Source: a virus
Lineage: Duplodnaviria; Heunggongvirae; Uroviricota; Caudoviricetes
Virus record (IMG/VR): IMGVR_UViG_3300027896_000028
DNA length: 64,000 nt
Strand: one strand, 5' to 3'
This document shows positions 6,285 to 27,123 of this stretch, piece by piece (positions within the stretch are counted from its first letter, which is position 1; each line of letters begins with the position of its first letter). The position numbers and the translations under genes are program-made. The notes beneath the pieces were generated by a model that saw nothing but the letters and a program-made list of their open reading frames with translations, was not told the origin of the DNA and searched no databases.

Positions 6285-6467
6285 TTATCTTCCTTTGATG
6301 AAAGCAATGAGCAAAACCACCGCAAGAGCTGCTGCTCCAATGATAAAGAGCCAGTAGAAGAATGTAGGATACGTATCAATCAGCTGCTGGAAGCAGTACT
6401 GTTGATACGACATAACAACGACGGGTTGATTGTTCATATTAGTTCTCTTGAACGACGAATGTACCAC
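6285..6467 (-). CDS. small membrane protein
   Basis: 60 aa with a hydrophobic core (FFYWLFIIGAAALAVVLLIAFI). Confidence 0.4.
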   Translation of the reverse strand: MVHSSFKRTNMNNQPVVVMSYQQYCFQQLIDTYPTFFYWLFIIGAAALAVVLLIAFIKGR

Positions 6468-6696
6468 TGATGATTACAGCCTTGTCATTGTTGTCAATGA
6501 AGAAGCAGCTTCCACCACGATCTTCCACCTTGGACTTAGCTTTCCAAGTTTGGATAGCTGTACCGTTTGCGTTGTAGAGGGTGATGGTGCGATTCAAGCC
6601 GAGCCAGTCAGACTTCTCGTGCTTGAGTGCGTTGTTAATTTTACCACAACCGGTCAGAACAACCAGGAGAGGAGCGATGATGAGTAGTTTTTTCAT
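6439..6696 (-). CDS. putative lipoprotein
   Basis: 85 aa. N-terminal signal with lipobox LVVLTGC. Confidence 0.5.
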   Translation of the reverse strand: MKKLLIIAPLLVVLTGCGKINNALKHEKSDWLGLNRTITLYNANGTAIQTWKAKSKVEDRGGSCFFIDNNDKAVIISGTFVVQEN

Positions 6697-7764: not shown

Positions 7765-8880
7765 TTAATGCTTAAAGCAATTGTCAATATCGATGCGAGC
7801 GAAGTTTGGAGTACCCAAACCAGTAAGACCATTGTAAAGGAACGTAACTGTCTTCCCTATCCAACCACCCACCTCAAAGAGAACCTTACGGTCCTCATAG
7901 CAACCTTTAAACGTTGCATCAAACTCTATACCCTCCCACAGCAATGTAGCTGTGACTGCAGAACCGTCCATCGTCTTGCCTTGATGGATAGCGAGGATCT
8001 TAGCTTCTGCGTCATCTTCGGGTTTAACCTTGAGTAGATCATATGAGCGACCGTGCTTGTAAGGAGCAGTGATAGACCGATACATAGCACCCTCGTACCC
8101 ATCATCTACATAGGATTGATACACTTTGTATGTCTCATCAACACTCTTCACCATCTCGTAGTCGACAACAACAATGTATTTGATATCCTGTAGAAAAGTC
8201 TTCAGAGCTTCACGACGCTGCAGGTTTCCGGTCTGCTCAGTAACGCCATTGAAACCGTAACCATCATAAACATAGAGCCGAACAAACTCTTCGCTCTCCT
8301 TTAAAACAGCTGGTGTGATCTTCTTCTCCTTCTTTTTGAGAATGCTCATCAACTTGTTGAGCTTATAACGGAACTCGTGATTGTAACCTTCACCATCAAT
8401 AACGAGATCAGGATATCTCTTAAAAAGAGGCTCCAAGGCTTTGATGATGTGTGGAATGGTAAGCCAGGTCTCACCCTTGCGAGTGAATGCACCATCCTTA
8501 GTAACAATGACACGACCACCGTTGTACTTGCGATCCAACATCGCCGGGAAAGTGATTGTATCAAGACGATCTTTGAGATGATAAGCGAGCATAGGCTCAA
8601 CGTACTGAAAGTTGTCAACATCATTGATAGAAAGGAAGTAACCAGTCTTGAGCTGTTTCTTGTATTTCGACTTGACCTCAGCTTCAGCTTGCTCTTCAGC
8701 AGTAGTAGCATTTGCCTTGCCGATGTTCTTCGGCTTAGCAATGACCCAATCTGATTCAACTAGATTAGGGCTACCCTTCACTCCAGCGACAGTACGAAAC
8801 TTATCACCATCACGCTGCTGATACCAGATGCGAATATTACCTGTTGAATCCTTACAATAGAGGGTGTCGTATGTTTTCAT
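7765..8880 (-). CDS. ATP-dependent DNA ligase (T7-like)
   Basis: 371 aa. Motif I is KYNGGR (compare T7 KYDGQR), motif IV is DGYEGAMYR and motif V is LLKVK. Confidence 0.8.
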   Translation of the reverse strand: MKTYDTLYCKDSTGNIRIWYQQRDGDKFRTVAGVKGSPNLVESDWVIAKPKNIGKANATTAEEQAEAEVKSKYKKQLKTGYFLSINDVDNFQYVEPMLAYHLKDRLDTITFPAMLDRKYNGGRVIVTKDGAFTRKGETWLTIPHIIKALEPLFKRYPDLVIDGEGYNHEFRYKLNKLMSILKKKEKKITPAVLKESEEFVRLYVYDGYGFNGVTEQTGNLQRREALKTFLQDIKYIVVVDYEMVKSVDETYKVYQSYVDDGYEGAMYRSITAPYKHGRSYDLLKVKPEDDAEAKILAIHQGKTMDGSAVTATLLWEGIEFDATFKGCYEDRKVLFEVGGWIGKTVTFLYNGLTGLGTPNFARIDIDNCFKH

Positions 8881-9394: not shown

Positions 9395-10255
9395 TTACGT
9401 GAGAATGTCAGCGTTTTCAAACAGGTTCTGATTGCGCCATTTGAGCGCTTCAGCGACAGTTTTGATTTCCGGTGCCACACCCTCAAGGTGGAAGCAGCCG
9501 ATCGATGGATTCGTCATCTTGAGATAACGAGCGTCTTTCAGCTCCTCACTCAGTTCGATGCTGTACAGCTCGTATGTATCCCGTTTGTCGAGCAGCTTGT
9601 GTGGAAGCGCACTGATCACGCGATCCATACCCACCTTGCGAATCAGCTCGCGACGAACTTCAACGTTGGTTTCCTTCAAGACCGTATTGGTGTCTAGCTT
9701 CTCAGCGGGAGTCAACACATACTCTTTCTTCAGCATCACACCGTTGAGTGCGAAGATTTCGTTATCGCCACTGTAAGACAGCGCCGGGCCATCTTCGCAG
9801 TTGAGACCGCTAGCGTTCTTCTTGACAATCGACATCGGTTGGCACACGATGCATTCCTGGTCGAGAGGAAACACCATGCCATACTTCTGGCAGTTGCGAA
9901 GAGCATCGTATTCCGCGCGGTTTTTGTAAACCACGTCGAGTTCATTCGCGCAATATTCGTAGAACGCGAACCACGACGCCCAGAACTGGCAGTCGAAGTA
10001 CGGATACACGAACTTCAGTTGATCGTCTTTCTTGCGACCAAGAACTTCATTGACGCGATCCCAACACGCCTTCGGAGACTGAAAGAGTGAAACCGGTGCC
10101 GGTTTATCCTTCTTCAGGACGAGGCGCTGAAACACTTCGAAGTCAGCTTCCGCATCTTCGAGTTTCAATTGCTTTGTGGTGAGCCCCTTCGCAGTCCATT
10201 CCGCAACGTATTGCGGAAACTTCGCTTGCTGCTCTTCCGTTAGTTTAGTGATCAT
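9395..10255 (-). CDS. hypothetical protein (GC-rich gene)
   Basis: Track ORF 9395..10300 begins at TTG. The start is set to the first in-frame ATG (MITKLTEEQ). Local GC is about 50% against roughly 37% background. Confidence 0.5.
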   Translation of the reverse strand: MITKLTEEQQAKFPQYVAEWTAKGLTTKQLKLEDAEADFEVFQRLVLKKDKPAPVSLFQSPKACWDRVNEVLGRKKDDQLKFVYPYFDCQFWASWFAFYEYCANELDVVYKNRAEYDALRNCQKYGMVFPLDQECIVCQPMSIVKKNASGLNCEDGPALSYSGDNEIFALNGVMLKKEYVLTPAEKLDTNTVLKETNVEVRRELIRKVGMDRVISALPHKLLDKRDTYELYSIELSEELKDARYLKMTNPSIGCFHLEGVAPEIKTVAEALKWRNQNLFENADILT

Positions 10256-10289
10256 AGTCTGAGTGTTATTTGTTGTTTGTGTTGGCGAT

Positions 10290-10610
10290 TTAGTCAACAA
10301 CCTGACGGGTCATCTTGCTGAACCAATCGTATTCTTGAACACGACCAATCTCGTACAAGCCCTTGTCGAGCTTGATGTGACCGTGCTCTTGGTGAGTCAG
10401 AGTAGCCGGCCCCTCGAGCTTCAAGAGCATCTTCTCACCAATCTGGATGAGTTCGGAGTCGGTCTCTTCGATGCCGTGATAGTGACCAGTCACTTCACCT
10501 TCAGCGAGCACGAGCTTGCCTTTGGAAATGACCTTCTGTTCACCAGCAGGCATCTTCGTGATGCGACGGAGAAGCACGTCGCCCTGTTGTACTGTTTTAA
10601 GTTTCTTCAT
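10290..10610 (-). CDS. hypothetical protein
   Basis: 106 aa with GDVLL...GEVTGHYH motifs. GC-rich like its neighbour. Confidence 0.5.
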   Translation of the reverse strand: MKKLKTVQQGDVLLRRITKMPAGEQKVISKGKLVLAEGEVTGHYHGIEETDSELIQIGEKMLLKLEGPATLTHQEHGHIKLDKGLYEIGRVQEYDWFSKMTRQVVD

Positions 10611-11628: not shown

Positions 11629-11997
11629 TTATTGCATTGCGTGAGCTGGCGTGGCTGTTGACAGTGTGCATGTAGGTGAAGTACCTACGTTCACTGTGTC
11701 GTTGTACGTCCCGCCACCAGGGCAGCCAGGGACTTTATTATTAGCATTCAGTTTGATATAAACTGAAAGGCTAGCAGATACTGAAGCAGTAGTGCCAGCA
11801 GCCTTGTTGTTCTCTATCGCATACTCCTGCGCTGCATTGTCAATCTGCTGAAGATTGTTAATGCATGCATTAGCTTGCGTCGTTGCACGAGCTCTCACGA
11901 AGTTGGGAATAGCAATAGCAGCAAGCAATCCTATAATTGCGACAACTATCATTATTTCAACAAGCGTGAAGGCGCTTTGTCTTTTGGTCGTTTTCAT
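11629..11997 (-). CDS. type IV pilin / pseudopilin-like protein (prepilin-type N-terminal cleavage/methylation domain)
   Basis: Leader MKTTKRQSA followed by FTLVEIMIVVAIIGLLAAIAIP, the class III signal / N-methyl-Phe hydrophobic helix. Strong SD (AAAGGAGAG) 6 nt upstream of the chosen ATG. GC-rich. Confidence 0.75.
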   Translation of the reverse strand: MKTTKRQSAFTLVEIMIVVAIIGLLAAIAIPNFVRARATTQANACINNLQQIDNAAQEYAIENNKAAGTTASVSASLSVYIKLNANNKVPGCPGGGTYNDTVNVGTSPTCTLSTATPAHAMQ

Positions 11998-12204: not shown

Positions 12205-14820
12205 ATGTCTGACAAAAACAACATTGTGGGTGCATTTCGTCACAAAAATACACTCATTACACCTACAGTAGTGAATCGAGGTAATAGCGTCATCTTTTAC
12301 ACATCAAAAAAGAGAATGACTCTCTCTGATGGTGCCTCACCCCTGTATGAATATACTGTACGCGGTAAAAGCCTTATTATTGAGTCCCATACAGTAAAAC
12401 CAGGTGTTGAGGTTGGTGTATTAACAATCGAGAATGCTAATTATGAGTTTCTTCTCCAGCCTGCCGGGAATCGGGAGTCGGCTATTATAATTAACCCAAA
12501 TCAAAAGAAAGTAGTCATTGATAATAGCAGCGTTGCATCCTATTTCACTAAAGATACCGACCACCCGAAATCAATAGAACAAAACAACGGACCTCTCAAG
12601 TTCAATAATTACGAGACAAAGCATCTAGTATATGAAGCACTCACACCACTCTCTGCTCTTATAGCAGAGAGTGTGAGCAATCAAAATGAGTCAATATCAT
12701 TAGCTCTCACAAATCTTAACAATTTCGTCAAAGAACAGCGAGTTGCCTTGGAAGGTGTAATCCAGAAGGATTTTGTCAAGATAAAAGAGTCTCAGCAGAC
12801 ATCATTTACTAAAGGATGGGAGAAGGTTCTCGAAATAACTGACAAGAAGACGTCCGAATGGTTTAAGGTTTATGGTGAGAAGACAAACAAGAAGGTCTCG
12901 TCCGAATTACAATCGTTCGCAAGGAATTTAATAAACGAAGCTGTTGAGAAGCAAGGTGAGGAACTGTTAAAGGAATCTCATACTCACCTAGCATCACTTA
13001 GTGCTTTAACATTCAAATGGTTTAAGGAGCAGGTTAATAACATTGAGAAGATGTCTGATCAACTGCTAGTCGAAAAGAATGAGCAGACTGAAACAGAATT
13101 GGACAAGCGAATAGAGAAGTTGACAGAACAGGTTACCCACAAGCTGCAACATCTTACAGATAAAGTAACGTCCGAATCCACAAAGATTGAACAGTCCTTG
13201 ACATCTAAAGTAGACAAAAAGACAAATGCTATTGACACGTTGTCTAAGTCGCTAGAGAAGATCATTAAGGAGACACCTGGTAATGTTACAGAGCTATTTG
13301 AGAGTGCATCTAGGAAGTGGACGAAGGCGCTCGAAGATAAGGTAACTGAGCTCGAAACATTCAAAGAGAGCATTTACAGTGGTAATAAAGATGTAGTAGA
13401 TAAGTTCAATAAGCTTTCACATAAGGTTACTGAAACAGAGACAGAGCTAGAGAAGCAGAAGAAGACTGTTAACAGGGAAGTAAAGACATATATCGACAAG
13501 CAGACTGCTGAGATGAAAATCTTGATTGGTAAGTCTCTGGAGTCTGGTGGTGGCTCTGCTACTAACCCATTCATTAACGGTGGCACGATGAATGGTGACC
13601 TAACTGTTAAGGGTAACTTAAACGTTGAAGGTATATATCTATCTGCTGGTATTAGTTTATTCACGCTACTATCTGGTGCGGGCGGTGGAACTGGTAGAGA
13701 TGATGTTAACACAGTTGTTATATCTAGCTCAGCTAACTGGAATAGTGTATTCTCAACGGTTAAAGCTAATAGCGCTGAATGGGAAGCTGATTTTACAGTT
13801 GTAAACACTAACTCAGCTAATTGGGATACTGCATACGGTTACTCTACAGTGTACAGTTCTAACAGTGCGTCTTACGGTTCAACATATTCTACCGTTAACA
13901 CTAATAGCGCTAGCTGGGATATATCTTCTGCATACGCAACGGTATACAGCTCTAACAGTGCTAAGTACGAATCTAATTATAGTACGACTACCACTAACTC
14001 AGCTAACTGGGGTAGTGTATACACCACAGTAAATAATACTAGCGCTAATTGGAATATTGGTTATGATTTTGGTACAACGTTCAGTGTTATTAGTGCTTCA
14101 TATGATTCGTCTTATTCAACTGTTAATGCTAACTCCGCTAACTGGGATATCAGTTTTAAATACAGCACAGTTTATAGTGCCAATAGCGCTACATACGCCA
14201 CAATCGCTTATACAGCAAATTATCTGCCTCTCAGTGGTGGTAGCGTAGTAGGTGATGTTACAATTTTCGGTAATCTAACAGCATACGGCACAATTACCTT
14301 CTTAGACACACAGGTAATTGTTGCCAGTGCAATGCATATTACCAATACAGGTACTGGCCCTGCATTAGTAGTAAATCAAACAGGCCCTCAACCTATTGCA
14401 GATTTCCAAGATGACGGTTTTACTGTTGTTCGTATCGCTGATGATGGCTTTGTTGGTATTGGGACAATTACACCGAATGTTGAATTGACGGTTAAGGGTG
14501 CTATCAGCGCTACTGGAGACGTTACATTTAATAGCAGCCTAAACTTAATGCCGGTCGTTTCGGGGGCTGCTGTTGTCTTAGGTGCTAAATCATTCTACGT
14601 ATATTCTGGTGCAGGTGATATTACTTGGACGCTACCTGATTTAGCATCATCACCTAATAGAATGTATTTTATCAAGAATCGTAGTGCGGCTGGTAACATT
14701 TCCCTAAATGCTAGTGGAGCTGATAATTTATACTACACCTCTGTAACGCCTTCTTACAACGTAGGGCCTGGTGAAGCTTATATCATCGCAAACGATGGCA
14801 CATACTGGGAGATCATGTAA
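12205..14820 (+). CDS. tail fiber-like protein (long coiled-coil stalk, NSANW-type repeats, C-terminal beta-rich domain)
   Basis: 871 aa. A roughly 250-aa heptad-rich coiled coil, then GGTMNGDLTVKGNLNVEG and TITPNVELTVKG fiber-type motifs. At least 10 degenerate N(S/T)(A/S)NW repeats (aa 510-650). Confidence 0.65.
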   Translation: MSDKNNIVGAFRHKNTLITPTVVNRGNSVIFYTSKKRMTLSDGASPLYEYTVRGKSLIIESHTVKPGVEVGVLTIENANYEFLLQPAGNRESAIIINPNQKKVVIDNSSVASYFTKDTDHPKSIEQNNGPLKFNNYETKHLVYEALTPLSALIAESVSNQNESISLALTNLNNFVKEQRVALEGVIQKDFVKIKESQQTSFTKGWEKVLEITDKKTSEWFKVYGEKTNKKVSSELQSFARNLINEAVEKQGEELLKESHTHLASLSALTFKWFKEQVNNIEKMSDQLLVEKNEQTETELDKRIEKLTEQVTHKLQHLTDKVTSESTKIEQSLTSKVDKKTNAIDTLSKSLEKIIKETPGNVTELFESASRKWTKALEDKVTELETFKESIYSGNKDVVDKFNKLSHKVTETETELEKQKKTVNREVKTYIDKQTAEMKILIGKSLESGGGSATNPFINGGTMNGDLTVKGNLNVEGIYLSAGISLFTLLSGAGGGTGRDDVNTVVISSSANWNSVFSTVKANSAEWEADFTVVNTNSANWDTAYGYSTVYSSNSASYGSTYSTVNTNSASWDISSAYATVYSSNSAKYESNYSTTTTNSANWGSVYTTVNNTSANWNIGYDFGTTFSVISASYDSSYSTVNANSANWDISFKYSTVYSANSATYATIAYTANYLPLSGGSVVGDVTIFGNLTAYGTITFLDTQVIVASAMHITNTGTGPALVVNQTGPQPIADFQDDGFTVVRIADDGFVGIGTITPNVELTVKGAISATGDVTFNSSLNLMPVVSGAAVVLGAKSFYVYSGAGDITWTLPDLASSPNRMYFIKNRSAAGNISLNASGADNLYYTSVTPSYNVGPGEAYIIANDGTYWEIM
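13720..14200 (+). repeat. degenerate coding tandem repeats (about 45 nt; NxSANW(D/N)xxY motif)
   Basis: Repeated TNSANW / NSASW / NSAKY units are visible in the translation of 12205..14820. Confidence 0.5.
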
Positions 14821-14828
14821 ATATTCAT

Positions 14829-16961
14829 ATGAAGAACATTGTAGTTAAATTCATCTTAGCAGCAGTCTTGGTGTTGTTAGGCATCGCAGACAGTCAAGCA
14901 GCTTTGCAGACAACGTTTCCTGCGAGCGCTATTACTAATGCTCCCTGGACAACAACACAAACTGTATCCCAGATTATTAGCACATCATCTATCTCTGTAC
15001 AGCAGATTACTAATTTTAATCAAGTCATATCAACCTCATCAGTTCCGGCCAATACTATTACTAATCCAATTTGGGTTAATACTAATGGTGGATTTGCATG
15101 GGGTCTTACTATTTTTGGTGGTGTATTCAACGGCAATGGCGGAGGGCTAACCAATCTTAATATTAGCGGCATTTCTAATTTTCCAACAGCATGGAGTTAT
15201 ACGGCTATAACTAATCCACCATGGTGTACAACCGGAGCAGTTAGTAGCATAATTTCAACATCAGCTATTCCAGCTGCTAATATAACTAACCCTACTTGGT
15301 TGACTACTCAGCAAGTTGGTGGTATTATAGCCACGTCAGCAATACCTGCAGCCAATATAACTAACCCCCCTTGGACTACTACAGGAGCAGTTGGTGGAAT
15401 TCTATTAACATCTCAGTTGCCTAATACGGTCATCACTAACCCGCCTTGGACAACAACTGGAGCAGTGCAATCAGCCATCTCATCGTTCGCTTCTACAGGT
15501 ACAGTAGCTTATGCTAACACATCATCAGTCGCAATGAACCTTTCAGCTGATCTAACTAACTGGGTTTTATCATCTGGTGTAGGTGTAGATTTCTATCAAA
15601 CTTCTACTACTAATAACATATCAGCTTCAATCTCCAATTGCTTTATGTTCTCTGTAAGCCCAGTAATAAACATGATGACAAATTCAGTTGTACCTACTGC
15701 AGGTTCTTATGGGCAGACTTGGCTAACTCCAATAACTGTTTCTCGTCTTGAAGTAGGTTACATATACATTAATTCCATGTTCTCGATAACAGGTAACGGT
15801 GGACCATCCACCACTGCTCAATATGAATTGTGGACTTGGAACACAAATGGTACATTTACACAATTCCCTGGTGGTTACTGTTCTGGTATGATGGTTAGTT
15901 CCGCTACGCCCGCCAATACAGGGCCAATGTCTATATCTATACAAAATGCAACCAACTTAGCAAGCGGAACTTATCTCGCACTACGATTAAAATTTGTTAC
16001 AACTAGCGGAAATAATCTAAATTTCTCTACCTATTCTGGAGATGGATATATCTCTGTTATTGCTGTAAATGCTGGTAACTCATTACAGTCAATAGCAACA
16101 AATAACCCATTTAATGGTGCATTCTTAGGGTCAGACGGTATCAACTCTTTCTGGTCGATTAATGCTTATTGGTTAACTAATCTAAACGCTACAAACTTGA
16201 CAGGTATAATTCCTCTAACGAAAATACCATCACTACCGAGTTCAATCATTACTAACCCCCCTTGGTTGACTACTCAGCAAGTTGGAGGTATTATAGCTAC
16301 ATCACAGATACCAGCAGTTAATATTACTAACCCCCCTTGGACTACTACAGGAGCAGTTGGTGGAATTCTATTAACATCTCAGTTGCCTAATACGGTCATC
16401 ACTAACCCGCCTTGGACTACTACAGGAGCGGTTGGTGGAATTCTGCTTACATCTCAGTTACCTAATACGGTAATTACTAATCCACCTTGGACAACTACAC
16501 AAGCAGTAGGTGGCATTGTTGCTACATCCGCGATACCAGCTGCTAATATAACAGGCACTTTGCCTTATATCAGCAACAATAATGGTGCTGGTACAAACAC
16601 TACGCTCGTCACTGTTACTATAACTAATGGTAACTGGACAGGCCTGTTCTCATTAACGAATGTGACATTTACATTTTCAGGTAACATTAGGTATGCTGTT
16701 ACAAACGTATCAGCAAACTATACAGTATCAACGAACGACAACACTGTTAACTGCCTATCTAATTCCTTTAACGTAACCTTACCAACTGCTGTCGGAATTG
16801 AAGGTCTGGAGTATGATGTTAAGAATTCAGGTAACGGTGTTATCACTTTACTAACTACAGCTGGCCAAACGATAGACGGTAACGCTAGTGGAACAATTAA
16901 GTTAGGTACTATGGATAACTATACATTACGTGTAGCCAATACAAACTGGATGATAAGATAA
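14829..16961 (+). CDS. repeat-rich secreted or structural protein (fiber/adhesin-like)
   Basis: 710 aa. N-terminal signal-peptide-like MKNIVVKFILAAVLVLLGIADSQA. At least 10 copies of a roughly 25-aa unit ITNPPWTTTGAVGGILLTSQLPNTV. C-terminal domain similar to that of 12205..14820. Confidence 0.65.
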   Translation: MKNIVVKFILAAVLVLLGIADSQAALQTTFPASAITNAPWTTTQTVSQIISTSSISVQQITNFNQVISTSSVPANTITNPIWVNTNGGFAWGLTIFGGVFNGNGGGLTNLNISGISNFPTAWSYTAITNPPWCTTGAVSSIISTSAIPAANITNPTWLTTQQVGGIIATSAIPAANITNPPWTTTGAVGGILLTSQLPNTVITNPPWTTTGAVQSAISSFASTGTVAYANTSSVAMNLSADLTNWVLSSGVGVDFYQTSTTNNISASISNCFMFSVSPVINMMTNSVVPTAGSYGQTWLTPITVSRLEVGYIYINSMFSITGNGGPSTTAQYELWTWNTNGTFTQFPGGYCSGMMVSSATPANTGPMSISIQNATNLASGTYLALRLKFVTTSGNNLNFSTYSGDGYISVIAVNAGNSLQSIATNNPFNGAFLGSDGINSFWSINAYWLTNLNATNLTGIIPLTKIPSLPSSIITNPPWLTTQQVGGIIATSQIPAVNITNPPWTTTGAVGGILLTSQLPNTVITNPPWTTTGAVGGILLTSQLPNTVITNPPWTTTQAVGGIVATSAIPAANITGTLPYISNNNGAGTNTTLVTVTITNGNWTGLFSLTNVTFTFSGNIRYAVTNVSANYTVSTNDNTVNCLSNSFNVTLPTAVGIEGLEYDVKNSGNGVITLLTTAGQTIDGNASGTIKLGTMDNYTLRVANTNWMIR
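15190..15480 (+). repeat. about 75-bp coding tandem repeats (first block)
   Basis: Near-identical DNA units encoding ITNP(P/T)W(T/L)TT...GGI..TS.(I/L)P. Confidence 0.55.
16240..16560 (+). repeat. about 75-bp coding tandem repeats (second block, 4 units)
   Basis: Units such as actaaccc(c/g)ccttggac(t/a)actaca(g/c)gagc(a/g)gttggtggaattct recur at 16243, 16321, 16396 and 16471. Confidence 0.6.
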
Positions 16962-16968
16962 TAAATTT

Positions 16969-18267
16969 ATGAAGAAAATATTAGCAACAATAACATTAAT
17001 AGTATTTGCCTGTTTTATGGCAGGTGCAACAATCATTAATAATCCAACAGTTGATTTCAACCCAGGTAACGAATCTGCCTTCGGTGTGCTTGAGACAGGT
17101 GAGTTGACACCAGTCTTGCAAATGGACTTTATCTACGGTATTAACATCCAAGTAGGTAAGACAAACATAAGCGGTTTAACCGGCGGTGGTAACGTAGATA
17201 CTTCTGCGAACCGTCTTCGTGTTCAATCTGGAACTAATACGGCAGGATTCGGCACTTTTCAATCTGTGCGTGGTGCTAAATACCGCGCAGGACAAGGCGT
17301 CACAGCCCGTTGGACATCAGTATTCGCTCAGCCTGTAACCAATAACTTACAGGAGATGGGTGCTGGTAATGAATCTGATGGTTATATGTTTGGATATTTT
17401 ACTAATGGACAATTTGGTATCATTTACCGTGGATGGGGAACAAATTCATTCATTCCGCAAACGAGCTGGAATGGTGATAAATCTGACGGTACCGGTAAAA
17501 GTGGATTTGCGTTAATACCCACGAATGGTAATGTGTACATGGTGAAATACCCTTTCCTGGGTTATGGTAATATTGAATTTTTTATTGAAGATGGATCGGC
17601 TGGATTCGTATTGGTGCATACAATTCTATATGCAAATACATCAACCAATACATCTATCAGCAACCCGAATCTGTCATTCTGGGCTCGTAGTATTAACTAT
17701 GGTTCTCAAAGCAATGTTGTTATGTACTCTGGTTCGGTGGGTTTCTTCTTATCAGGTCCTCGTTCATTCTTAAGCAATCCTAAATGGGCTGCAAACTCAG
17801 GTTATCTAACTGCTGCGACTGCATATGAAACTAATCTAATAACACTGCAAAATTGTACAAACTATAACGGTATACCAAACCGTTCATTAATCAGATTAAA
17901 CTCAATGACGATTAGTACTACAGTGACTGCATCTGGAGCTGCTACATATTTTGTTCGATATAACCCAAACTACACTATAGCGCCTACATTCGTAGCTATC
18001 AATGGTACAACTAACCTAAATGGTTTGGTTATAACAAACGGTAACTCTATAACAGGTATATCAACAAACAATACTGGTATATCGGGAGGTCAATTAATAT
18101 TCACTAGTTGTGTTTCTGGTCCTAACAACGGATCTCAGAATCAACTTATTGACCTATCGCCATATGACCTCTATATCGCACCAGGTGATAAGATTACAGT
18201 AAGTGTGCAAGCTGTGGCTGGTACTACAATAAGCATCATCAGCTTAACTTGGACAGAAGATATCTAA
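16969..18267 (+). CDS. secreted or structural protein (signal-peptide-like N-terminus)
   Basis: 432 aa. MKKILATITLIVFACFMAGA, then a Gly/Asn/Thr-rich beta-type sequence. Confidence 0.55.
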   Translation: MKKILATITLIVFACFMAGATIINNPTVDFNPGNESAFGVLETGELTPVLQMDFIYGINIQVGKTNISGLTGGGNVDTSANRLRVQSGTNTAGFGTFQSVRGAKYRAGQGVTARWTSVFAQPVTNNLQEMGAGNESDGYMFGYFTNGQFGIIYRGWGTNSFIPQTSWNGDKSDGTGKSGFALIPTNGNVYMVKYPFLGYGNIEFFIEDGSAGFVLVHTILYANTSTNTSISNPNLSFWARSINYGSQSNVVMYSGSVGFFLSGPRSFLSNPKWAANSGYLTAATAYETNLITLQNCTNYNGIPNRSLIRLNSMTISTTVTASGAATYFVRYNPNYTIAPTFVAINGTTNLNGLVITNGNSITGISTNNTGISGGQLIFTSCVSGPNNGSQNQLIDLSPYDLYIAPGDKITVSVQAVAGTTISIISLTWTEDI

Positions 18268-18272
18268 ACTTT

Positions 18273-19139
18273 ATGAAGTATATTACGTCTCTATTAACAG
18301 TTGGTATATTGTTATTAACCTTTTCAGTAATGGGTCAATCTACAATGACTGTGTCTAGCTTTTCTGGAACCATACAGCAAGGTGTAGTAGTGACTATTGC
18401 GCAGCAGGCTAACTCATTAACTGCCGGGAGTACTAGTACTAATCCGACTTTTGTTGGTACTACAATCTTGAATAGCAATTTGGTAATAAATGCCGACACC
18501 ACTACCAGCCCCATCACAATTACAAACAGCAAATTCGTAACAGTCATAACGAACAGTCTTATAGGAACAACTTTGTACGTAAGTTATGGAGCTAATAAGC
18601 CATTAATATCCTGGAACACTAATGGCAATATTATAATAACACCTGCGACTGGAAGTTCTGTCAGCCTTAATGGTAATACTTCAATAGGTACTACTACGAC
18701 AACTAATACAGTTCGTGGAACAACTATGTTTACCGGTGAAGGTACTACTACAATTGGTGGATCGGTGACAATTTCAAATGGATATGTAGATACTCCGGTT
18801 TACGTAAGCTATACAGGTGTCACAAATGGCATATTAGATTTATCATTGGGATCAACGTTTATGATCACAAATTTAACCAATCACATCTATATATCATTAA
18901 CCAATACTACTGGTTTAATTGGTACGCATAGGAACATAACTCTATTGACTCAACAGAATGGTGTGGGTGGTTGGTTTATTACTTGGAATACTAACGTGGC
19001 TGTAGCTTGCTCTAAGTTTAGTTATGGAGTAATCCCAGTTAACACGACAAATAGTAATGCCCGTACTGTATACTCAGGTACTACATCGCCAAGTAGTACA
19101 AACGTTTTCTGGATAATGACAGACAATTTCCAACCTTAA
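18273..19139 (+). CDS. secreted or structural protein (signal-peptide-like N-terminus)
   Basis: Track ORF 18249..19139. Start moved to MKYITSLLTVGILLLTFSVMG to avoid overlap. Thr/Asn-rich. Confidence 0.5.
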   Translation: MKYITSLLTVGILLLTFSVMGQSTMTVSSFSGTIQQGVVVTIAQQANSLTAGSTSTNPTFVGTTILNSNLVINADTTTSPITITNSKFVTVITNSLIGTTLYVSYGANKPLISWNTNGNIIITPATGSSVSLNGNTSIGTTTTTNTVRGTTMFTGEGTTTIGGSVTISNGYVDTPVYVSYTGVTNGILDLSLGSTFMITNLTNHIYISLTNTTGLIGTHRNITLLTQQNGVGGWFITWNTNVAVACSKFSYGVIPVNTTNSNARTVYSGTTSPSSTNVFWIMTDNFQP

Positions 19140-19142
19140 AAT

Positions 19143-21641
19143 ATGAGATACATATATGCTATACTTGCTGCACTACTCATATTCATTCCTAGAGTAGGAG
19201 CGGTATCTAAGACTGCAGTTTCTACTGGTAACTGGAATGCCGCTATTTGGAGTCCCACTGGAGTTCCAGTCTCTACAGATTCCGTTATTATCTCTAACGT
19301 TACAGTCACCATTACTAATAACATAACGATTACAAATCTCTGGTTGACGAATGCAGTATCAGTTTTAGTAGTTACAAACCCAAATGGCCCAGCTTCCTTA
19401 ACGGTGAAAGGTAACCTCACGAATGAGTCTGGATCAACACTGTCACTCGCCGCGAATTGTACTTGTACGAACCTTGTCATCAATGGTGTTGCTAATAGCA
19501 CAGGTGGACTGATTCTTTTATACAACAGCATATCGCTTACTGCTCAATCAATTACTACGACTGGATTTGGTTCTGGTTCTGGTTCGATTAATAGTGTGAC
19601 TGGAAATAACGTTTGTACCAATCATGGCCAATTTGTTTCTGGCGCTGGTGGGTTTCAGTTGGGATGTGATTCAGGCTCATTTACTCATTCAGGAGGAACT
19701 GGCTCAATAGGATTTAACAAATATGGGGCGGGAACGAATATTCTATATGGGGCGGATGGTACAACTGGCGCACATACTATAAATGCAGGTGTGTGGCAGC
19801 TAAGTCCAGGAGCTTCAATGCAAGCAGTATCTTGGACTATAAAAGGAGTTTTGGACTTGAATAATAACAACTTAGCAGTTGGCGCAGTGGCAAATAAAAC
19901 AATCACACTAGGTAACTCTACAGTTTGTGATATCAAAACAGGAACTGGCACAATGAGTATTTTTTATCCTGATACTATAATTTCAACCTCAGGTGCGGTA
20001 ACTAGCACCATTAGTGGAAACTTAGATATTAATAAGTTTACGAATAATAATGGCGGTCTTCGATTTAATACAGTTAACTCTGCCGCATACATAAAACTTC
20101 AAGCGGTAGTTTCGGGTGGAGGGTTTGTTAAGACTAATGTAGGTACTCTAGAACTTTCTGGTGCAAACATATATACAAATCAATTAGAGATAGCGCAAGG
20201 GGTATTAGTGTTAACTGTCGCTCCTAATAGTAACAACGTTGCTGGTCCATTTGGTAGTAACGCACTCCCGGTGCTTCTTGGAAGCTCAAGTACAATAGCT
20301 AATGCCACTTTGACCTTTGGATTTGATGGATCATCAGATAAAGACTTCTATGTAGGTGTTTCAGGTGAGAGCGGTCCTGCAAATGCTATTAATACGAGTG
20401 GTGGTAACATAGAATTATCAGGATTTATCACTGCTCCTGGTGGAGCTACATCTAAGATGATAGAAAAACGTGGAGGATTAACTCTTACACTTTCCGGAAT
20501 AACTGATAATCTTTGGGTTAAGTGGTATTTAATAGGTGGAACGTTAGTTCTCAATAAATCAAATCCGGCTACTCGAGCAGGTGCTGAGTTATGGCTTGAT
20601 GGTACTTTTAGTACTACAGCTAGACTAGGTCCTGATAGTGGTGGTGATCAAATAGGTACTGGAGGACTAGGAGGAAACCTTAACTTTACTAATCAGAATC
20701 CTGGATCTTTCTCAGTGTTTGATATGAATGGTCAGAATGAAGCTATTGATATTATAAGCGCACCGGTCTCTACTAATTTTATCATCTGTAACAATAGCAA
20801 CAATACCATCTCTACTCTTACTGTAGGTACATCAACTCCTGGCGGTAGTTCATCTTACGGCGGACTATTCTTAGATAATACAAATGGAAGTGGAGGGGGT
20901 TTGGCTTTAAGGAAATATGGTACCGGTATATTCACCTTCTGTTATTCTAATCTATCAGCGTTTACAGGAGGAGTCTTAGTTAGTAATGGTATCTTATCTG
21001 CTACCAACGGGTTCAGGTTTGGTGAAAGCAATAATATCACAGTGGTTCAAGGCGCATATCTATCCCTATTTTCATCATCTAGCGTGCTCGGTACAAACGC
21101 TTGGTTATTTTTAGGTACAAATGCGGGTTCGTTTGTAACTAATAGTTTTAATGGAACTAACTTTATTGGTGCATTGTTCACCAATGGTGTTCGCCTAGCA
21201 AACGGCACCTACGGTGTATCCAACTCTCCTGCAGCTAATAAGATTAACGTCTTCGCAGCAACTAATGTAAATGGTAACGGTATATTGAGTGTGGGTAACG
21301 TTCCTAATGGTATAGCACCGGTTATCACAAACGTTACAGCTAGCTACTTCGAAAATCGCAGTCACTATCCTTGGGCCATACTAACTGGAGTAATCAGCAA
21401 TTCACAAGGTATCTATCCAGCACAAGGAGAAACAGTAACAGCCAAGATAGATGGATTCCCAGCTTATAACGGAACAGTAACTAACAATACAGGCAGATTC
21501 GTAGTAACTAATAGAATTGAGTCTATACCTGGAGGTATATTTCCTATACTATACTCTTATACAGGAGGAACAAACCTCTTAGCTGCACCTACAAATAGCA
21601 GCACAATATTAACCAATGTAGGTTCATTCATGACTTTTTAA
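19143..21641 (+). CDS. autotransporter-like beta-helix repeat protein (PATR-type repeats)
   Basis: 832 aa. Signal-peptide-like MRYIYAILAALLIFIPRVGA. Repeated G-x-GTL-x-LSGAN-x-YT motifs (VGTLELSGANIYTNQLEIAQGVLVL; LRKYGTGIFTF...NGILSATNG) match passenger-associated transport repeats. Confidence 0.55.
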   Translation: MRYIYAILAALLIFIPRVGAVSKTAVSTGNWNAAIWSPTGVPVSTDSVIISNVTVTITNNITITNLWLTNAVSVLVVTNPNGPASLTVKGNLTNESGSTLSLAANCTCTNLVINGVANSTGGLILLYNSISLTAQSITTTGFGSGSGSINSVTGNNVCTNHGQFVSGAGGFQLGCDSGSFTHSGGTGSIGFNKYGAGTNILYGADGTTGAHTINAGVWQLSPGASMQAVSWTIKGVLDLNNNNLAVGAVANKTITLGNSTVCDIKTGTGTMSIFYPDTIISTSGAVTSTISGNLDINKFTNNNGGLRFNTVNSAAYIKLQAVVSGGGFVKTNVGTLELSGANIYTNQLEIAQGVLVLTVAPNSNNVAGPFGSNALPVLLGSSSTIANATLTFGFDGSSDKDFYVGVSGESGPANAINTSGGNIELSGFITAPGGATSKMIEKRGGLTLTLSGITDNLWVKWYLIGGTLVLNKSNPATRAGAELWLDGTFSTTARLGPDSGGDQIGTGGLGGNLNFTNQNPGSFSVFDMNGQNEAIDIISAPVSTNFIICNNSNNTISTLTVGTSTPGGSSSYGGLFLDNTNGSGGGLALRKYGTGIFTFCYSNLSAFTGGVLVSNGILSATNGFRFGESNNITVVQGAYLSLFSSSSVLGTNAWLFLGTNAGSFVTNSFNGTNFIGALFTNGVRLANGTYGVSNSPAANKINVFAATNVNGNGILSVGNVPNGIAPVITNVTASYFENRSHYPWAILTGVISNSQGIYPAQGETVTAKIDGFPAYNGTVTNNTGRFVVTNRIESIPGGIFPILYSYTGGTNLLAAPTNSSTILTNVGSFMTF

Positions 21642-21645
21642 AACT

Positions 21646-21879
21646 ATGGCAAACCTTAACCTTAGAGAACCAAACAATATAACTAGCAATTGGTATGTTG
21701 ATACAACATGCACACATTGCCATAAATGCACTAGAACTTGCTCTGCTGTGTTCTACGGCAACGAAAATGCTACATGGGTATTTGCCGGCCCGCATACTCC
21801 TGAGGATTTGGCTCTGTGTGAGAAAGCTATGGCCGAATGTCCAGTCGGTGCAATAGGTAATGATTGGGTAGAGCCTTGA
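21646..21879 (+). CDS. 4Fe-4S ferredoxin-like protein
   Basis: 77 aa with CTHCHKCTRTC (CxxCxxCxxxC) and a distal ECP cysteine. Confidence 0.55.
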   Translation: MANLNLREPNNITSNWYVDTTCTHCHKCTRTCSAVFYGNENATWVFAGPHTPEDLALCEKAMAECPVGAIGNDWVEP

Positions 21880-21909: not shown

Positions 21910-22455
21910 ATGAAAGCAATTGTAGCAATGGATTTAAACCGAACCATTGGTAATAACGGTAAACTCCCCTGGCCAAAAATTAAAGAAGATTTCGCGTTCT
22001 TCAAGAAGATGACTATAGGTGACAATCTTATCATGGGTCGCAAGACTTTTGACTCTGTAGGTGAGTTACCTGGACGCTTCACTTGGATCTTAACTAATGA
22101 TCAATCTAAGATGGCTAAGAAGTGCCTTAATATGGCTGGTGAGAGTTATGCCTACAATAATAACAGCGCTTATGTTGAGCGAGCTGATATTGATAAATTT
22201 ATAGCGACTGAAGGAAAAGATCCTCGATACACTAGCGATTTATGGGTTTGTGGTGGTGCCCAAATCTACAAAGATCTGATTCCCCTCTGCACAGATGTTT
22301 ATGTTACTCTAGTATTGAACGAATACGAAGGTGATACATTTCTACCGGAGTTTGAACATCTCTTCATTGAGCAAACTATTATTAAAGAACATAAAGACTT
22401 CTGGATCATTAGATACCACACACCTACTGCGATACCGGGAACACAATTGGTATAG
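21910..22455 (+). CDS. dihydrofolate reductase
   Basis: 181 aa. AIVAMDLNRTIGNNGKLPW and WVCGGAQIY are the DHFR signature motifs. Confidence 0.85.
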   Translation: MKAIVAMDLNRTIGNNGKLPWPKIKEDFAFFKKMTIGDNLIMGRKTFDSVGELPGRFTWILTNDQSKMAKKCLNMAGESYAYNNNSAYVERADIDKFIATEGKDPRYTSDLWVCGGAQIYKDLIPLCTDVYVTLVLNEYEGDTFLPEFEHLFIEQTIIKEHKDFWIIRYHTPTAIPGTQLV

Positions 22456-22576
22456 GTTTACCTTCGGAGTCAGTTAACACTGTAGCGTCTCCGTTACTGT
22501 TGATAGCATTCGGCATTGTTTGGCAACCTTGCATTAACACTAAAAGTAGTGGTATAGTAATAAACAGAATCTTCAT
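22424..22576 (-). CDS. putative small lipoprotein
   Basis: Track ORF 22424..22630 trimmed to MKILFITIPLLLVLMQGC (lipobox). Confidence 0.35.
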   Translation of the reverse strand: MKILFITIPLLLVLMQGCQTMPNAINSNGDATVLTDSEGKPIPIVFPVSQ

Positions 22577-22908: not shown

Positions 22909-22924
22909 ACCTCTAAATAGTAGT

Positions 22925-23404
22925 ATGAAGAAGATTACTGCTTACGCCGCTATCGCGCTTGTCGCAACGATGTTTATTATTGGTTGTTCTACCACCAAGG
23001 ATCTTGCACCAAACGGTGCATATAATCAAGATGCATACCTGTATAACATTGATCAAACCGTTGTTGTATCATATAACGTGATTGATCAATTTCTCATATT
23101 TGAAATGAAGAATAACGACTGGATTAAAACCAATTCACCTGAGGTCTTTAAGATTGCTAACGACATCAGAGATAAGACACCGAACGTCCTGAAGAATATC
23201 TCAACAGCTCGTAACTTGTATATCAAGTATCTAGGTAACACCAATGAACTAGCAGCCAATAAAGAATTGGCAAAAGCACAGCTGTCATCAGCTGTCGGTG
23301 ATCTTAGCAACACTGCATTGATCGCTCAAAGCGCTATTGGCGCAGTCAGTATAGGTGCACAAGCTCCGGTTGCTACGAATGTTGTCAACATCCTACCCCA
23401 ATAA
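22925..23404 (+). CDS. putative lipoprotein
   Basis: Track ORF 22817..23404 trimmed to MKKITAYAAIALVATMFIIGCS (lipobox). Confidence 0.5.
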   Translation: MKKITAYAAIALVATMFIIGCSTTKDLAPNGAYNQDAYLYNIDQTVVVSYNVIDQFLIFEMKNNDWIKTNSPEVFKIANDIRDKTPNVLKNISTARNLYIKYLGNTNELAANKELAKAQLSSAVGDLSNTALIAQSAIGAVSIGAQAPVATNVVNILPQ

Positions 23405-24779: not shown

Positions 24780-25580
24780 CTATTTTAAGAGGTTGAAGTA
24801 TTCTCGCCAATCACATTTAATGAGCTTGCATTGTCTAGGGTCAGACAGATATAAGAAGTCTAAAATCTTTTCATCACTACCAATGTAGCCATTTGCAATG
24901 CAGGCTTCTACAATCATGTTAAATGTAGTAACCATTGAGTCTATCATTTCAATAGGTACAATGAATGCTGTACCTTGAATAAAGCGCATCTGCGACAAAG
25001 CATGATCTCTCGGTACTTGTATGCTAATATCTGAATGATGAGAGAAGAATGTAATTCGTTCTTTATCGATCTTAGCTTCGTTAGGCCATACCACACCCTT
25101 GTAGTTTTTTATATCTTCTCTCAAGCCACCAGCGTCAACCCAGAATAGGAACTGCTGACCTGGGAAAGCTGCAGCTTCTGCTGCAATCTCCAGAAAGCGT
25201 ACCTTATTAAACATCACTACATTGTATAGGGGTTTAGACATCTCTGGTACATGGTGAAAGGACACTTGCTTCTTGAATGCTTCAGAAGACATCAGCTCTT
25301 CAAGTTCATCGTTAAACTGAACATAGGCATCTAGCTCTTTAAGAGGTGTAATTAGTAGATGCGTCTTACAACCTGTAGGGTCAACCTCTCTACGAGATCT
25401 TATGATCTCCTCTTTAAATTTCTCTTCAGTAAAGATGACCATATTGCAGTCGATAGCTAACGTATTCTTCATCCAGTGGAGATACGTGTTGTAAGACATA
25501 GTGTGATGTTGCCATTTATCCCTCTCAATATCATAGAGAGCTGTAACTAGAGTAGTGTGTTTATTCATATCCATTGCCAA
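24780..25580 (-). CDS. hypothetical protein (possible nucleotide-sugar transferase-like)
   Basis: 266 aa. An LFWVDAGG motif lies in a glycosylation gene cluster. The family assignment is uncertain. Confidence 0.45.
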   Translation of the reverse strand: MAMDMNKHTTLVTALYDIERDKWQHHTMSYNTYLHWMKNTLAIDCNMVIFTEEKFKEEIIRSRREVDPTGCKTHLLITPLKELDAYVQFNDELEELMSSEAFKKQVSFHHVPEMSKPLYNVVMFNKVRFLEIAAEAAAFPGQQFLFWVDAGGLREDIKNYKGVVWPNEAKIDKERITFFSHHSDISIQVPRDHALSQMRFIQGTAFIVPIEMIDSMVTTFNMIVEACIANGYIGSDEKILDFLYLSDPRQCKLIKCDWREYFNLLK

Positions 25581-26323
25581 TTTACAATTTGATTTTTGTG
25601 AAGTATATTTACCTTAGACACATCAAAATGTCTAGAGGTGTTATCAGGGCTGTATAGAGAGTCTAATTTAAAGCCTACATGGTTAAGCATAGTGGGTACA
25701 AAACCTTCACCGTAACCAAAATAACCAGCATCATTGAAATCTAACAAAGCTTTAAACGCTTCATTTGAATATCGAGTGATAGCAAAGAATGAACCGAATA
25801 TGTCTTTGACATCAGCAGGCATAGTATCTGTCGGGCCAGGATATCTACGAAACCAATCGGTACCTGAGTGAGTATTATTGTCAATCAACGGTACTAGAGG
25901 TTGTTCAGTGATACCAGCATTCTTGAATATGAAGTAGCTTAGGAAATCTGAATCATACTTTACATCTTTAAAAAATGCATCCCAGTCATTGCAGAGTATA
26001 TCATCATCAAAGAACCAATAGTAGTCGAAATTTGGATTAGCTTTATAGAAGTTAAGCATCCTTAGATAAGCATAGAACCATATGATGTTACGATTACCAT
26101 AAGCATTCCAGTAATGCTGCTTGCTTACCTCGTGTGGAAATTTCAGATTCTTTCGTACATCTGCTTCTGTGTAGATAAATGAGTTACCGTTGATAGGAGA
26201 AACTGGATTACTCTGACTATCGATAATAGCGTAGGTATTAGGTTTTTCAAGAAATGCCTTCCAGTGTGGGATATAGCTATTAATTGAATGGTTAGCAAAG
26301 CATGCACAATAACTGTTAATCAT
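25565..26323 (-). CDS. putative glycosyltransferase (DxD motif)
   Basis: 252 aa. YWFFDDDILCNDWD is a DXD-type motif. Confidence 0.5.
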   Translation of the reverse strand: MINSYCACFANHSINSYIPHWKAFLEKPNTYAIIDSQSNPVSPINGNSFIYTEADVRKNLKFPHEVSKQHYWNAYGNRNIIWFYAYLRMLNFYKANPNFDYYWFFDDDILCNDWDAFFKDVKYDSDFLSYFIFKNAGITEQPLVPLIDNNTHSGTDWFRRYPGPTDTMPADVKDIFGSFFAITRYSNEAFKALLDFNDAGYFGYGEGFVPTMLNHVGFKLDSLYSPDNTSRHFDVSKVNILHKNQIVNWQWI

Positions 26324-27122
26324 ACGAAGTTCTTAGAATTTTATACCATGTAGGTATCCGGTTAAATTGATGTACAATAGCATAAGGTGACCTCTGTTTA
26401 TTTACTATGCGACCATTGTATAGTTCAGGTACACAGTACTTCTCTTTTATGATGTTAAAGAATCCCCACACATTGAAGAATTGTGTTGGTCCAGCTACTG
26501 CACAATGCATAGCCCAGCTGTCATTTAAATTATAAATCTTCAGCTTATCTACCTGCTTCTTAGCTACCATGACAATGAGAGCTGCCTGGTCTTGTATATC
26601 ATGCTTATTAGTGCTACCTTCACACATAGCGTACATCCGCTTAAGCAATGAACTTAGAGGTGCGCGATTACCAGCAATGACACCAGAGTTGATGACTTCT
26701 TGATCTGAACATACAGCTCTATCACCTGGAAATAGCTTGCTTATGTTATCGGCATTCCATGGTTCCTGGTTAACCGTAACACCTTCACCACTTACAAAAA
26801 TATCATATGTACTGAAATCGAGCAAGAGCGGATTATCTTGAAATACGACATCAAAGACATCTGTGTACAGGATATGTTCATCTGTAATTGTGTCTAGATA
26901 ATCTGCAGCTACCTTCAACCGTGTATGATTAATAGATTGCTCGTGTGGTAGATTAACAGATATAACTTTCAACGGTAGATCGGCTACAGACTGCAAATCT
27001 CGTTCAGTCGCGTTAATAGCAAGTAAAACTACTGCATCTGGGCTGAAACGCTTGAAGCTCCTACTCCAGAGGCTTATTTTCGCTTTGTTATTGAACAGTT
27101 GATTACAAACACCTAAAAGCAT
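26316..27122 (-). CDS. putative glycosyltransferase
   Basis: 268 aa. ILYTDVFDVVFQDNP is a DxD-like motif. Co-oriented with neighbouring GT genes. Confidence 0.45.
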   Translation of the reverse strand: MLLGVCNQLFNNKAKISLWSRSFKRFSPDAVVLLAINATERDLQSVADLPLKVISVNLPHEQSINHTRLKVAADYLDTITDEHILYTDVFDVVFQDNPLLLDFSTYDIFVSGEGVTVNQEPWNADNISKLFPGDRAVCSDQEVINSGVIAGNRAPLSSLLKRMYAMCEGSTNKHDIQDQAALIVMVAKKQVDKLKIYNLNDSWAMHCAVAGPTQFFNVWGFFNIIKEKYCVPELYNGRIVNKQRSPYAIVHQFNRIPTWYKILRTSYD

Positions 27123-27123
27123 A

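Follow-up and report, generated by a model that had tools for sequence, protein, structure and literature searches.

The stretch of DNA analyzed here (IMG/VR record IMGVR_UViG_3300027896_000028, Caudoviricetes; 64,000 nucleotides (nt), hereafter the window) carries a block of five plus-strand genes, named A to E, between positions 12205 and 21641. Four of them, B, C, D and E, start with predicted cleavable signal peptides of the Sec type, and their products are quite likely exported across the inner membrane of the host. Once exported, they may act in the host envelope as glycan-binding proteins derived from phage recognition modules, masking or altering the receptor, a role that we propose tentatively and with slightly less than even confidence. 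Judged from sequence comparisons, the signal appears to be a clade-specific addition to otherwise ordinary virion-type proteins, which recurs on neighboring partners in several unrelated phages. The genes of the block and the signal of B are as follows (lengths in amino acids, aa).

12205..14820, plus strand: gene A, 871 aa, fiber-like, without signal peptide
14829..16961, plus strand: gene B, 710 aa, with a signal, ITNPPW repeats, a central beta-rich domain and a knob
14829..14900, plus strand: predicted Sec signal peptide of B, aa 1-24, cleaved between SQA and A
16969..18267, plus strand: gene C, 432 aa, predicted signal aa 1-20 (cleaved between AGA and T), two all-beta domains, phrog_1645
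18273..19139, plus strand: gene D, 288 aa, predicted signal aa 1-21 (cleaved between VMG and Q), T/N/S-rich, almost uncharged
19143..21641, plus strand: gene E, 832 aa, predicted signal aa 1-20 (cleaved between VGA and V), G/N/T-rich short strands, one PATR unit, immunoglobulin (Ig)-like end

With gaps of 8, 7, 5 and 3 nt from A-B to D-E, the five open reading frames (ORFs) form a tight operon. The initial annotation had presented them as consecutive ORFs encoding giant proteins, most of them with signal-peptide-like N-termini. Their arrangement was confirmed, D being read from the ATG at 18273, which is used by gene callers and by the orthologue, and not from the TTG at 18249 at which the mechanical ORF begins; the term giant does not suit proteins of 288-871 aa. 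The same five-gene order is found in a related phage (812, 825, 428, 286 and 839 aa), in which the block B-E is conserved at about 56-73% identity, E being 73% identical, while the surroundings of the block differ.

The suspected signals were well founded, as in each of B, C, D and E the N-terminal segment is more hydrophobic than any other stretch of 19 residues and the pattern holds in diverged homologues, whereas A has no comparable segment. The four segments open with MK or MR. Up to the predicted cleavage site, the N-termini read MKNIVVKFILAAVLVLLGIADSQA in B (followed by A), MKKILATITLIVFACFMAGA in C (followed by T), MKYITSLLTVGILLLTFSVMG in D (followed by Q) and MRYIYAILAALLIFIPRVGA in E (followed by V). 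A hydrophobic N-terminus occurs in about 13 of the 107 candidate ORFs of the window, mostly in small lipoprotein-like or membrane proteins, and B-E are the sole large consecutive ORFs among these. The Sec machinery and the signal recognition particle (SRP) recognize a basic n-region followed by a hydrophobic core of 10-20 residues at the extreme N-terminus. Signals were called here with heuristic criteria, i.e., a basic n-region, an h-region of 7-15 or more residues and small residues at positions -3 and -1, all at the extreme N-terminus. By these criteria, a Sec signal for signal peptidase (SPase) I was recognized in 17 out of 17 signal-bearing proteins, comprising B-E and their homologues on five other contigs. 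Their n-regions are charged +1 or +2 and hold no acidic residue; the hydrophobic run behind them is uncharged and 10-23 residues long, and an AXA-type site lies at residue 17-24. P0122 deviates in part, in that its uncharged run extends into the mature part (33 residues by script) and that its site, between TFA and A, was read by eye. No conserved lipobox (L-x-x-C, SPase II) was found in any of the 17 proteins. The sole lipobox-like context among B-E is that of Cys15 of C, which is replaced by Tyr in the orthologue and absent in P0007-P0009.

The anatomy of the signal is retained while its sequence drifts. This is illustrated by three pairs of proteins, in which the identity was 0.37, 0.44 and 0.48 within the signal against 0.63, 0.71 and 0.56, respectively, in the mature part. 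In the orthologue of D in L002, the mature part is 56% identical and a diverged signal, MKWIKSLFVVALLLLSLSTQA followed by A, is retained; the signal of E is also conserved in its homologue P0002. The idea that these proteins are N-glycosylated was discarded, the density of N-X-S/T sites in B-E being that expected from composition.

C matches phrog_1645, labeled "virion structural protein", from end to end (E=9.9e-27, residues 31-430 against positions 47-438 of the 440 of the profile), the label being a database annotation of homologues. At least 246 homologues of C were found, and C is 40-57% identical to the 120 of them that were listed. Relatives occur in HMO-2011, in T4-like cyanophages, where the S-T4 gene lies between terS and terL, and in further phages, and the named ones, Synechococcus phage S-T4 gp185 and Puniceispirillum phage HMO-2011 gp65, are annotated as virion proteins. 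Among 66 sequences including C, 21 columns are invariant, none of them acidic, and C keeps them all. The AlphaFold model of C obtained with these 66 sequences (predicted local distance difference test (pLDDT) 89, predicted template-modeling score (pTM) 0.83) consists of a helix at residues 2-17 and two beta domains, the first of which is predicted to adopt a beta-jelly-roll fold of the concanavalin A (ConA)-like lectin or glycoside hydrolase family 16 (GH16)-like type. In BFVD, the whole architecture is found in many tailed viruses, in haloarchaeal viruses and in some giant viruses. An enzymatic reading of C as a GH16 protein was considered and rejected: the fold fits, but the catalytic motif E-x-D-x(x)-E is not conserved, the IEFFIED columns of C reading IKFYVQN, IKFFVLH or ITFWVED in homologues, with positions that vary between E, Q and L and between D, N and H. 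Since this motif is not conserved, the model and the alignment make a lectin more likely than an enzyme, and the depolymerase-like character that the initial annotation had envisaged for the block found no support.

About 113 of the 120 listed homologues of C begin directly at a conserved core (MSYSLK..FDPSNLSAFGTLE) and have no signal. A signal was found in 7 of these roughly 120 proteins (counting the orthologue whose gene call skips it), in 1 of 55 IMG/VR loci and in 0 of 9 metagenome loci, and a metagenome scan with an alignment of the signal clade returned only signal-less homologues. The signal-bearing proteins have 17-20 extra residues, and in the alignment their predicted cleavage site coincides with the start of the ordinary homologues. 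In a neighbor-joining tree they fall into two exclusive, non-sister clades, from which the signal of C would have been gained at least twice; their contigs have GC contents of 41-62%.

The repeats of B and the C-terminal ends of A and B are listed below.

14563..14817, plus strand: C-terminal knob of A (A-type, TLP...Y.IKN...W.I), aa 787-871
15207..15506, plus strand: repeat block 1 of B, four 75-bp units encoding 25 aa (ITNPPW units), from the DNA repeat search
16248..16547, plus strand: repeat block 2 of B, four 75-bp units encoding 25 aa, from the DNA repeat search
16707..16958, plus strand: C-terminal knob of B (B-type), aa 627-710

The 75-bp DNA repeats announced for B were recovered in two blocks, at about 15199-15506 and 16240-16552. 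The repeats are thus real, but the count of about ten near-perfect 25-aa copies was too generous: there are 8 clear tandem units (4+4), 3 of them identical and 5 matching the reference at 14-17 of 25 positions, and 3 extra degenerate copies. At the DNA level, the unit at aa 177 matches the one at aa 499 at 74 of 75 positions. In the B homologue P0004, the signal, the repeats and the knob are kept and the center is swapped for SHAEGxS (YadA-head-like) repeats, which looks like the module shuffling typical of receptor-binding fibers. A comprises an N-terminal domain, a K/E-rich coiled coil (about aa 170-440), repeats of the S-A-N-W type (aa 508-650) and the C-terminal knob; the repeat families D3 and D4 were detected in it. 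It contains no cysteine and has a charged composition (K+R 8.8%, D+E 10.7%), whereas B, D and E have almost no charge (K+R 1.5-3.5%). A looks like a conventional fiber made in the cytoplasm.

The C-terminal domain that A and B had been said to share could not be detected by direct comparison (no BLASTP match; Smith-Waterman z=0.9), and was supported through intermediates: z was 16.6 between A and L008_927, 10.5 between L008_927 and L006_740, 32 between L006_740 and B, and 6 between L008_927 and B. The A knob additionally reached z=31 with a 154-aa protein of L006. In 37 IMG/VR viral loci, the knob lies at the extreme C-terminus of fiber-like proteins of 135-1655 aa, of which 35 have no signal and 2 (L171 and L175) do. 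A profile made from six knobs matched only A- and B-type proteins, and no knob was found in C, D or E. Fiber repeats, a C-terminal domain common to other phage fibers and module shuffling thus meet in A and B, and the fiber- or adhesin-like character initially attributed to the proteins of the block is supported.

The pairing of signals is not confined to the window. In four of four backbones (the window, L006, L008 and L161), a signal-bearing fiber with an A- or B-type knob lies directly upstream of a signal-bearing C. As background, in the 63 loci with a signal-less C homologue, 11 of the 543 ORFs that lie on the same strand and encode 100 aa or more (2%) look signal-bearing. L006 is a siphovirus-like contig with a tape-measure gene. 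In L008, which encodes a terminase, a portal, ClpP and an HK97 capsid, the pair lies between head and tail genes and is followed by a third, small signal-bearing protein. In L161, the pair comes after a small signal-bearing protein and is itself followed by genes for membrane proteins and lipoproteins that resemble a lysis cassette. L171 and L175 have a signal-bearing knob fiber, then a small signal-bearing protein, then endolysin genes. The small proteins (109-145 aa), all of which adjoin signal-bearing fibers, are encoded as follows.

L008, 11243-11614: small signal-bearing protein
L161, 6764-7201: small signal-bearing protein
L171, 6316-6744: small signal-bearing protein
L175, 6347-6676: small signal-bearing protein

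They may serve in the same compartment as chaperones or partners. The presence of signals on partners together indicates that a complex is moved as a unit across the inner membrane.

For D, no relatives beyond the orthologue were detected in Pfam, NCBIfam and PHROG scans or among GenBank phages. Two segments of E are listed below.

20124..20213, plus strand: the one PATR unit of E above the Pfam cut-off (PF12951, 29.1 bits against 27), aa 328-357
21306..21614, plus strand: C-terminal domain of E, aa 722-824, related to the Big_3_5 Ig-like domains repeated in other proteins (P0125 and P0128)

The PATR repeats initially reported in E were borne out for this one unit over the Pfam cut-off; it scores 17.2 bits with TIGR02601, under the cut-off of 19.85, and two more units were recognized by eye only, so that the membership of E in this family appears to be single-unit and marginal. 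The first 130 residues of E resemble G8-like starts, and its middle resembles bacterial PATR proteins (E-values of 1e-11 to 1e-4), several of which carry a PEP-CTERM (P0138, P0140 and P0148). With regard to the beta-helix initially seen in E, the AlphaFold2 (AF2) model, built from a mixed alignment of 24 rows and poor in quality (pLDDT 57), shows short regular strands; its best PDB match by Foldseek, the Ag43 passenger, is not significant (E=0.13). E is probably a PATR-type solenoid protein with an Ig-like end. It had been described as autotransporter-like, and a type Va autotransporter was considered and rejected: the Sec signal is present, but there is no beta-barrel (Pfam Autotransporter, PF03797), the C-terminal 100 aa or so are Big_3_5 Ig-like and only one PATR unit is significant. 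No PEP-CTERM (PF07589) was found either, and the protein ends in ...LTNVGSFMTF.

Taken together with the signals, these features lead to the following proposal. The Sec-type cleavable signals would carry B-E across the inner membrane, away from the site of capsid and tail assembly. Since no barrel, PEP-CTERM or lipobox was recognized, their default location would be the periplasm, unless a type II system takes them further; a pseudopilin gene adjoins the block in this phage, but is unlinked to it in the related one. In the envelope, B-E would bind host glycans, most likely the structures that the virion recognizes, and the receptor would in this way be masked or altered. Infected cells would thereby resist further infection by other phages, and released progeny would be less lost on cell debris. 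Export itself, the final location, glycan binding and receptor masking are what we infer from these data, and secretion, already suspected in the initial annotation, is the best reading. In support of the proposal, the same knob family ends the signal-less A and the signal-bearing B, the distant relatives of E are bacterial PATR and PEP-CTERM surface proteins, and B, D and E differ from A in their near lack of charge.

Several observations weigh against this proposal. The signal-less relatives of C are annotated as virion proteins, and the signal-bearing ones keep every residue that is invariant in the family, as if they still joined particles. In L006, L008, L161, L171 and L175, the signal-bearing fiber lies inside or at the end of structural modules and, in some of these phages, it may be the main fiber, which favors a role in the virion. 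The exported set amounts to about 2,260 residues, which is much if its task is simply to mask a receptor; the exclusion factors Llp and Cor, for example, are small. In signal-bearing C proteins and in B-E, no distinctive pattern of paired or additional cysteines, as would mark folding in the periplasm, was seen.

Part of these observations would be accommodated if B-E were virion fibers after all, which are exported, fold or mature in the periplasm and join the particles only once the holin has opened the inner membrane at lysis. The particles of tailed phages are generally considered to be assembled wholly in the cytoplasm, and their fibers are therefore not expected to carry secretion signals. 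After cleavage, mature C would be co-linear with full-length, signal-less virion homologues, with all invariant residues kept; partners carry signals jointly, as expected if a complex must move whole; and the signal-bearing fiber occupies the fiber slot, beside lysis genes or within structural modules, in five other phages. The large size of the exported set and its identity of about 56-73% to that of the related phage also fit this scheme. However, a search of the full-text literature returned no precedent in tailed phages, the time from the breach of the inner membrane to dispersal is short, no conserved cysteine pair or other feature demands folding in the periplasm, and B has no recognizable virion-attachment domain after its signal. 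Assembly after export, the main alternative, is regarded as rather unlikely for B-E, and it is likewise unlikely, to a marginally greater degree, that some tailed phages (this one and at least five other backbones) route distal fiber or lectin proteins via Sec and finish their virions outside the cytoplasm.

A second alternative is that B-E are not exported at all, the hydrophobic N-termini being trimerization or anchoring helices of cytoplasmic fibers, or start codons having been set too far upstream. In C, an internal ATG (17017-17019, Met17) lies three codons ahead of the predicted cleavage site and has its counterpart in the orthologue (L164, L165). In the related phage, the gene call of this orthologue (P0006) starts at Met17 and skips the hydrophobic segment; however, the upstream ATG and the segment are conserved there in frame. 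The resemblance of the proteins to virion fibers in other respects would also suit cytoplasmic proteins, as would the test for AXA-type sites, which is permissive in sequences rich in A, S, G and T. Against this, no alternative start lies near the end of the signal in B, D or E, the n-h-c anatomy is kept in 17 proteins despite turnover and would have been gained at least two times, and a basic n-region with a hydrophobic core of 10-20 residues is of the type of Sec/SRP substrates. We thus consider it improbable that the N-termini have no role in export. Initiation at Met17 could in principle give a signal-less cytoplasmic isoform of C beside the exported one. As a general mechanism, dual initiation was rejected, no equivalent of Met17 being present in B, E or the other signal-bearing C proteins.

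B-E could also be adhesins of the moron type, i.e., captured host genes of the autotransporter or PEP-CTERM kind, which change the adhesion of the infected cell and have nothing to do with recognition by the virion. The bacterial PATR/PEP-CTERM relatives of E would fit such an origin, as would the host-like pseudopilin gene that adjoins the block, the strand of the block, which is opposite to that of its upstream neighbors, and the different surroundings in the related phage. Nevertheless, C comes from a viral family, the knob of A and B is a phage-fiber terminus, and all five genes are translationally packed together with the fiber gene A. Moreover, without a beta-barrel or PEP-CTERM, E would have no surface anchor, and its relatives among 1.84 billion representative proteins number only 40, all of them weak, its one close homologue being also phage-borne. 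The moron proposed in the initial annotation is consequently a poor fit, since C belongs to a virion-annotated viral family, the A/B knob is a common fiber terminus and the pair lies within structural modules elsewhere; we hold such an origin to be quite improbable. Lastly, exported factors that loosen or degrade the capsule or outer layers from within and thereby aid release are very unlikely, for although C has a GH16-like fold and signal-bearing genes adjoin lysis genes in L161, L171 and L175, the GH16 acidic motif is not conserved, no invariant column is acidic, and Pfam, NCBIfam and PHROG scans detected no enzyme domain in A-E.

The immediate neighbors of the block are listed below.

11629-11997, minus strand: pseudopilin-like gene, prepilin-type (N_methyl), divergent neighbor of the block
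21646..21879, plus strand: ferredoxin-like gene (Fer4_13), 77 aa, 4 nt downstream of E
21910..22455, plus strand: dihydrofolate reductase (DHFR) gene, 30 nt beyond the ferredoxin-like gene

The ferredoxin-like gene lies directly 3' of E in the related phage as well, in which the pseudopilin-like gene is unlinked to the five-gene block. Along its whole length, the pseudopilin-like protein shares 60-66% identity with proteins from lake and soil genomes of Verrucomicrobia subdivision 3 (Limisphaerales). The gene is likely host-derived and, from this similarity, the host is probably a member of that clade. The window, with a GC content of about 40%, has the content of a large phage, including NAD (nicotinamide adenine dinucleotide)-salvage genes, DNA and RNA ligases, DHFR, glycosyltransferases, a sulfotransferase, an HNH endonuclease and ten tRNAs; no capsid or tail genes were found within it. 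The window gave no match in the searches of GenBank phages and IMG/VR. No match was returned by megablast of the block against GenBank phages, nor by tblastn for A, B, D and E among 50,697 GenBank phages; B had no relative in IMG/VR, and no sequence relatives were found in the PDB for A, B, E or the family of C. Scans for sigma-70 promoters and terminators remained at background level, and the T4-type late promoter motif TATAAATA, present once 110 nt upstream of A, was not enriched in the window (8 found against 6 expected).

Elsewhere in the window, three small ORFs of the lipoprotein type lie at 6439-6696 (minus strand), 22424-22576 (minus strand) and 22919-23404 (plus strand), with the lipoboxes LTGC, MQGC and IIGC; together with B-E, they make an unusually big set of exported proteins for this phage. 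Two paralogous fiber-like proteins, encoded on the minus strand at 38302-39516 and 40648-41784, have a common N-terminus (MSQNFTNF) and YadA-head-type repeats (Pfam YadA_head, E=4e-6 for one of the two) and no signal peptide. They flank a sulfotransferase gene (39538-40347, minus strand) and may be further virion fibers. A cluster of the glycosyltransferase type (HtrL_YibB, a GT2/GlcNAc-transferase-like phrog_24687 and others) occupies 24780-28362 on the minus strand and, along with the sulfotransferase, suggests that the phage alters surface glycans. The ten tRNA genes (Met, three Arg, four Leu, His and Phe), all on the minus strand between 24494 and 63772, are typical of large phages. The NAD-salvage pair (nicotinamide phosphoribosyltransferase and ribose-phosphate pyrophosphokinase), the DNA ligase and the RNA ligase, located at 2143-3759, 5203-6099, 7765-8880 and 45624-46694, all on the minus strand, are auxiliary or nucleotide-metabolism genes of a large lytic phage. 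The minus strand also encodes a protein of 427 aa that has a membrane anchor at its N-terminus and matches SPFH/Band 7 weakly (47622-48905, phrog_11908) and, upstream of the block, a DUF6745 protein (9395-10300, Pfam E=2e-11).

These genes provide a first glimpse of the recognition genes in phages infecting freshwater Verrucomicrobia; to our knowledge, hardly any phage-host system from this group is in culture. If B-E act in the envelope, phages would export duplicates of their recognition machinery and thereby manipulate the host surface, and receptor masking or superinfection exclusion would take a new form, made from fiber modules. If, instead, they were assembled after export, part of virion assembly would take place outside the cytoplasm, as a previously unrecognized maturation step in Caudoviricetes. 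We know of no precedent for extracytoplasmic fiber assembly in tailed phages, and no report of tail fibers with a Sec signal in tailed phages was found in the full-text literature.

What is new here is a phage fiber cassette with coordinated Sec signals, the nearest analogues (Llp/Cor, Lom/Bor, PblA/PblB and pIII) being without signal-bearing versions of tailed-phage fibers. C matches the profile of the phrog_1645 family, to which S-T4 gp185 and HMO-2011 gp65 belong, from end to end, and C and six other homologues have an additional signal of about 17-20 residues that about 94% of the family lacks. A and B are alike at their C-terminus to the knob-ended phage fibers (TLP..Y.IKN..DG.NW.I), from which B and the proteins of L006, L008, L161, L171 and L175 differ by the signal. 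E shares a Sec signal, one PATR unit and weak similarity with the PATR/PEP-CTERM proteins of Verrucomicrobia and with type Va passengers, and differs from them in being phage-encoded, with an Ig-like end and neither a barrel translocator nor a PEP-CTERM. The phage genes lambda Lom and Bor, T5 Llp and phi80 Cor carry Sec or lipoprotein signals and often stand beside tail-fiber genes; Llp and Cor block the phage's own receptor, and all four are small single proteins unrelated to virion components. In contrast, the present block comprises about 2,260 residues of fiber- and lectin-type proteins, one of them from a virion family, with no sequence similarity found to these factors. In filamentous phages, the receptor-binding and coat proteins pIII and pVIII have Sec signals and are assembled outside the cytoplasm; these phages belong to another realm and their particles are extruded, whereas the genes of the present element are those of a large tailed phage, although the window itself holds no capsid or tail gene. 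PblA and PblB of Streptococcus mitis phage SM1 are of the tail-fiber type and act on the bacterial surface, which they reach after lysis and without signals, in a Gram-positive host. The likeness thus lies in fiber-type phage proteins acting at the bacterial surface, and it is by their signal peptides that B-E differ from PblA and PblB.

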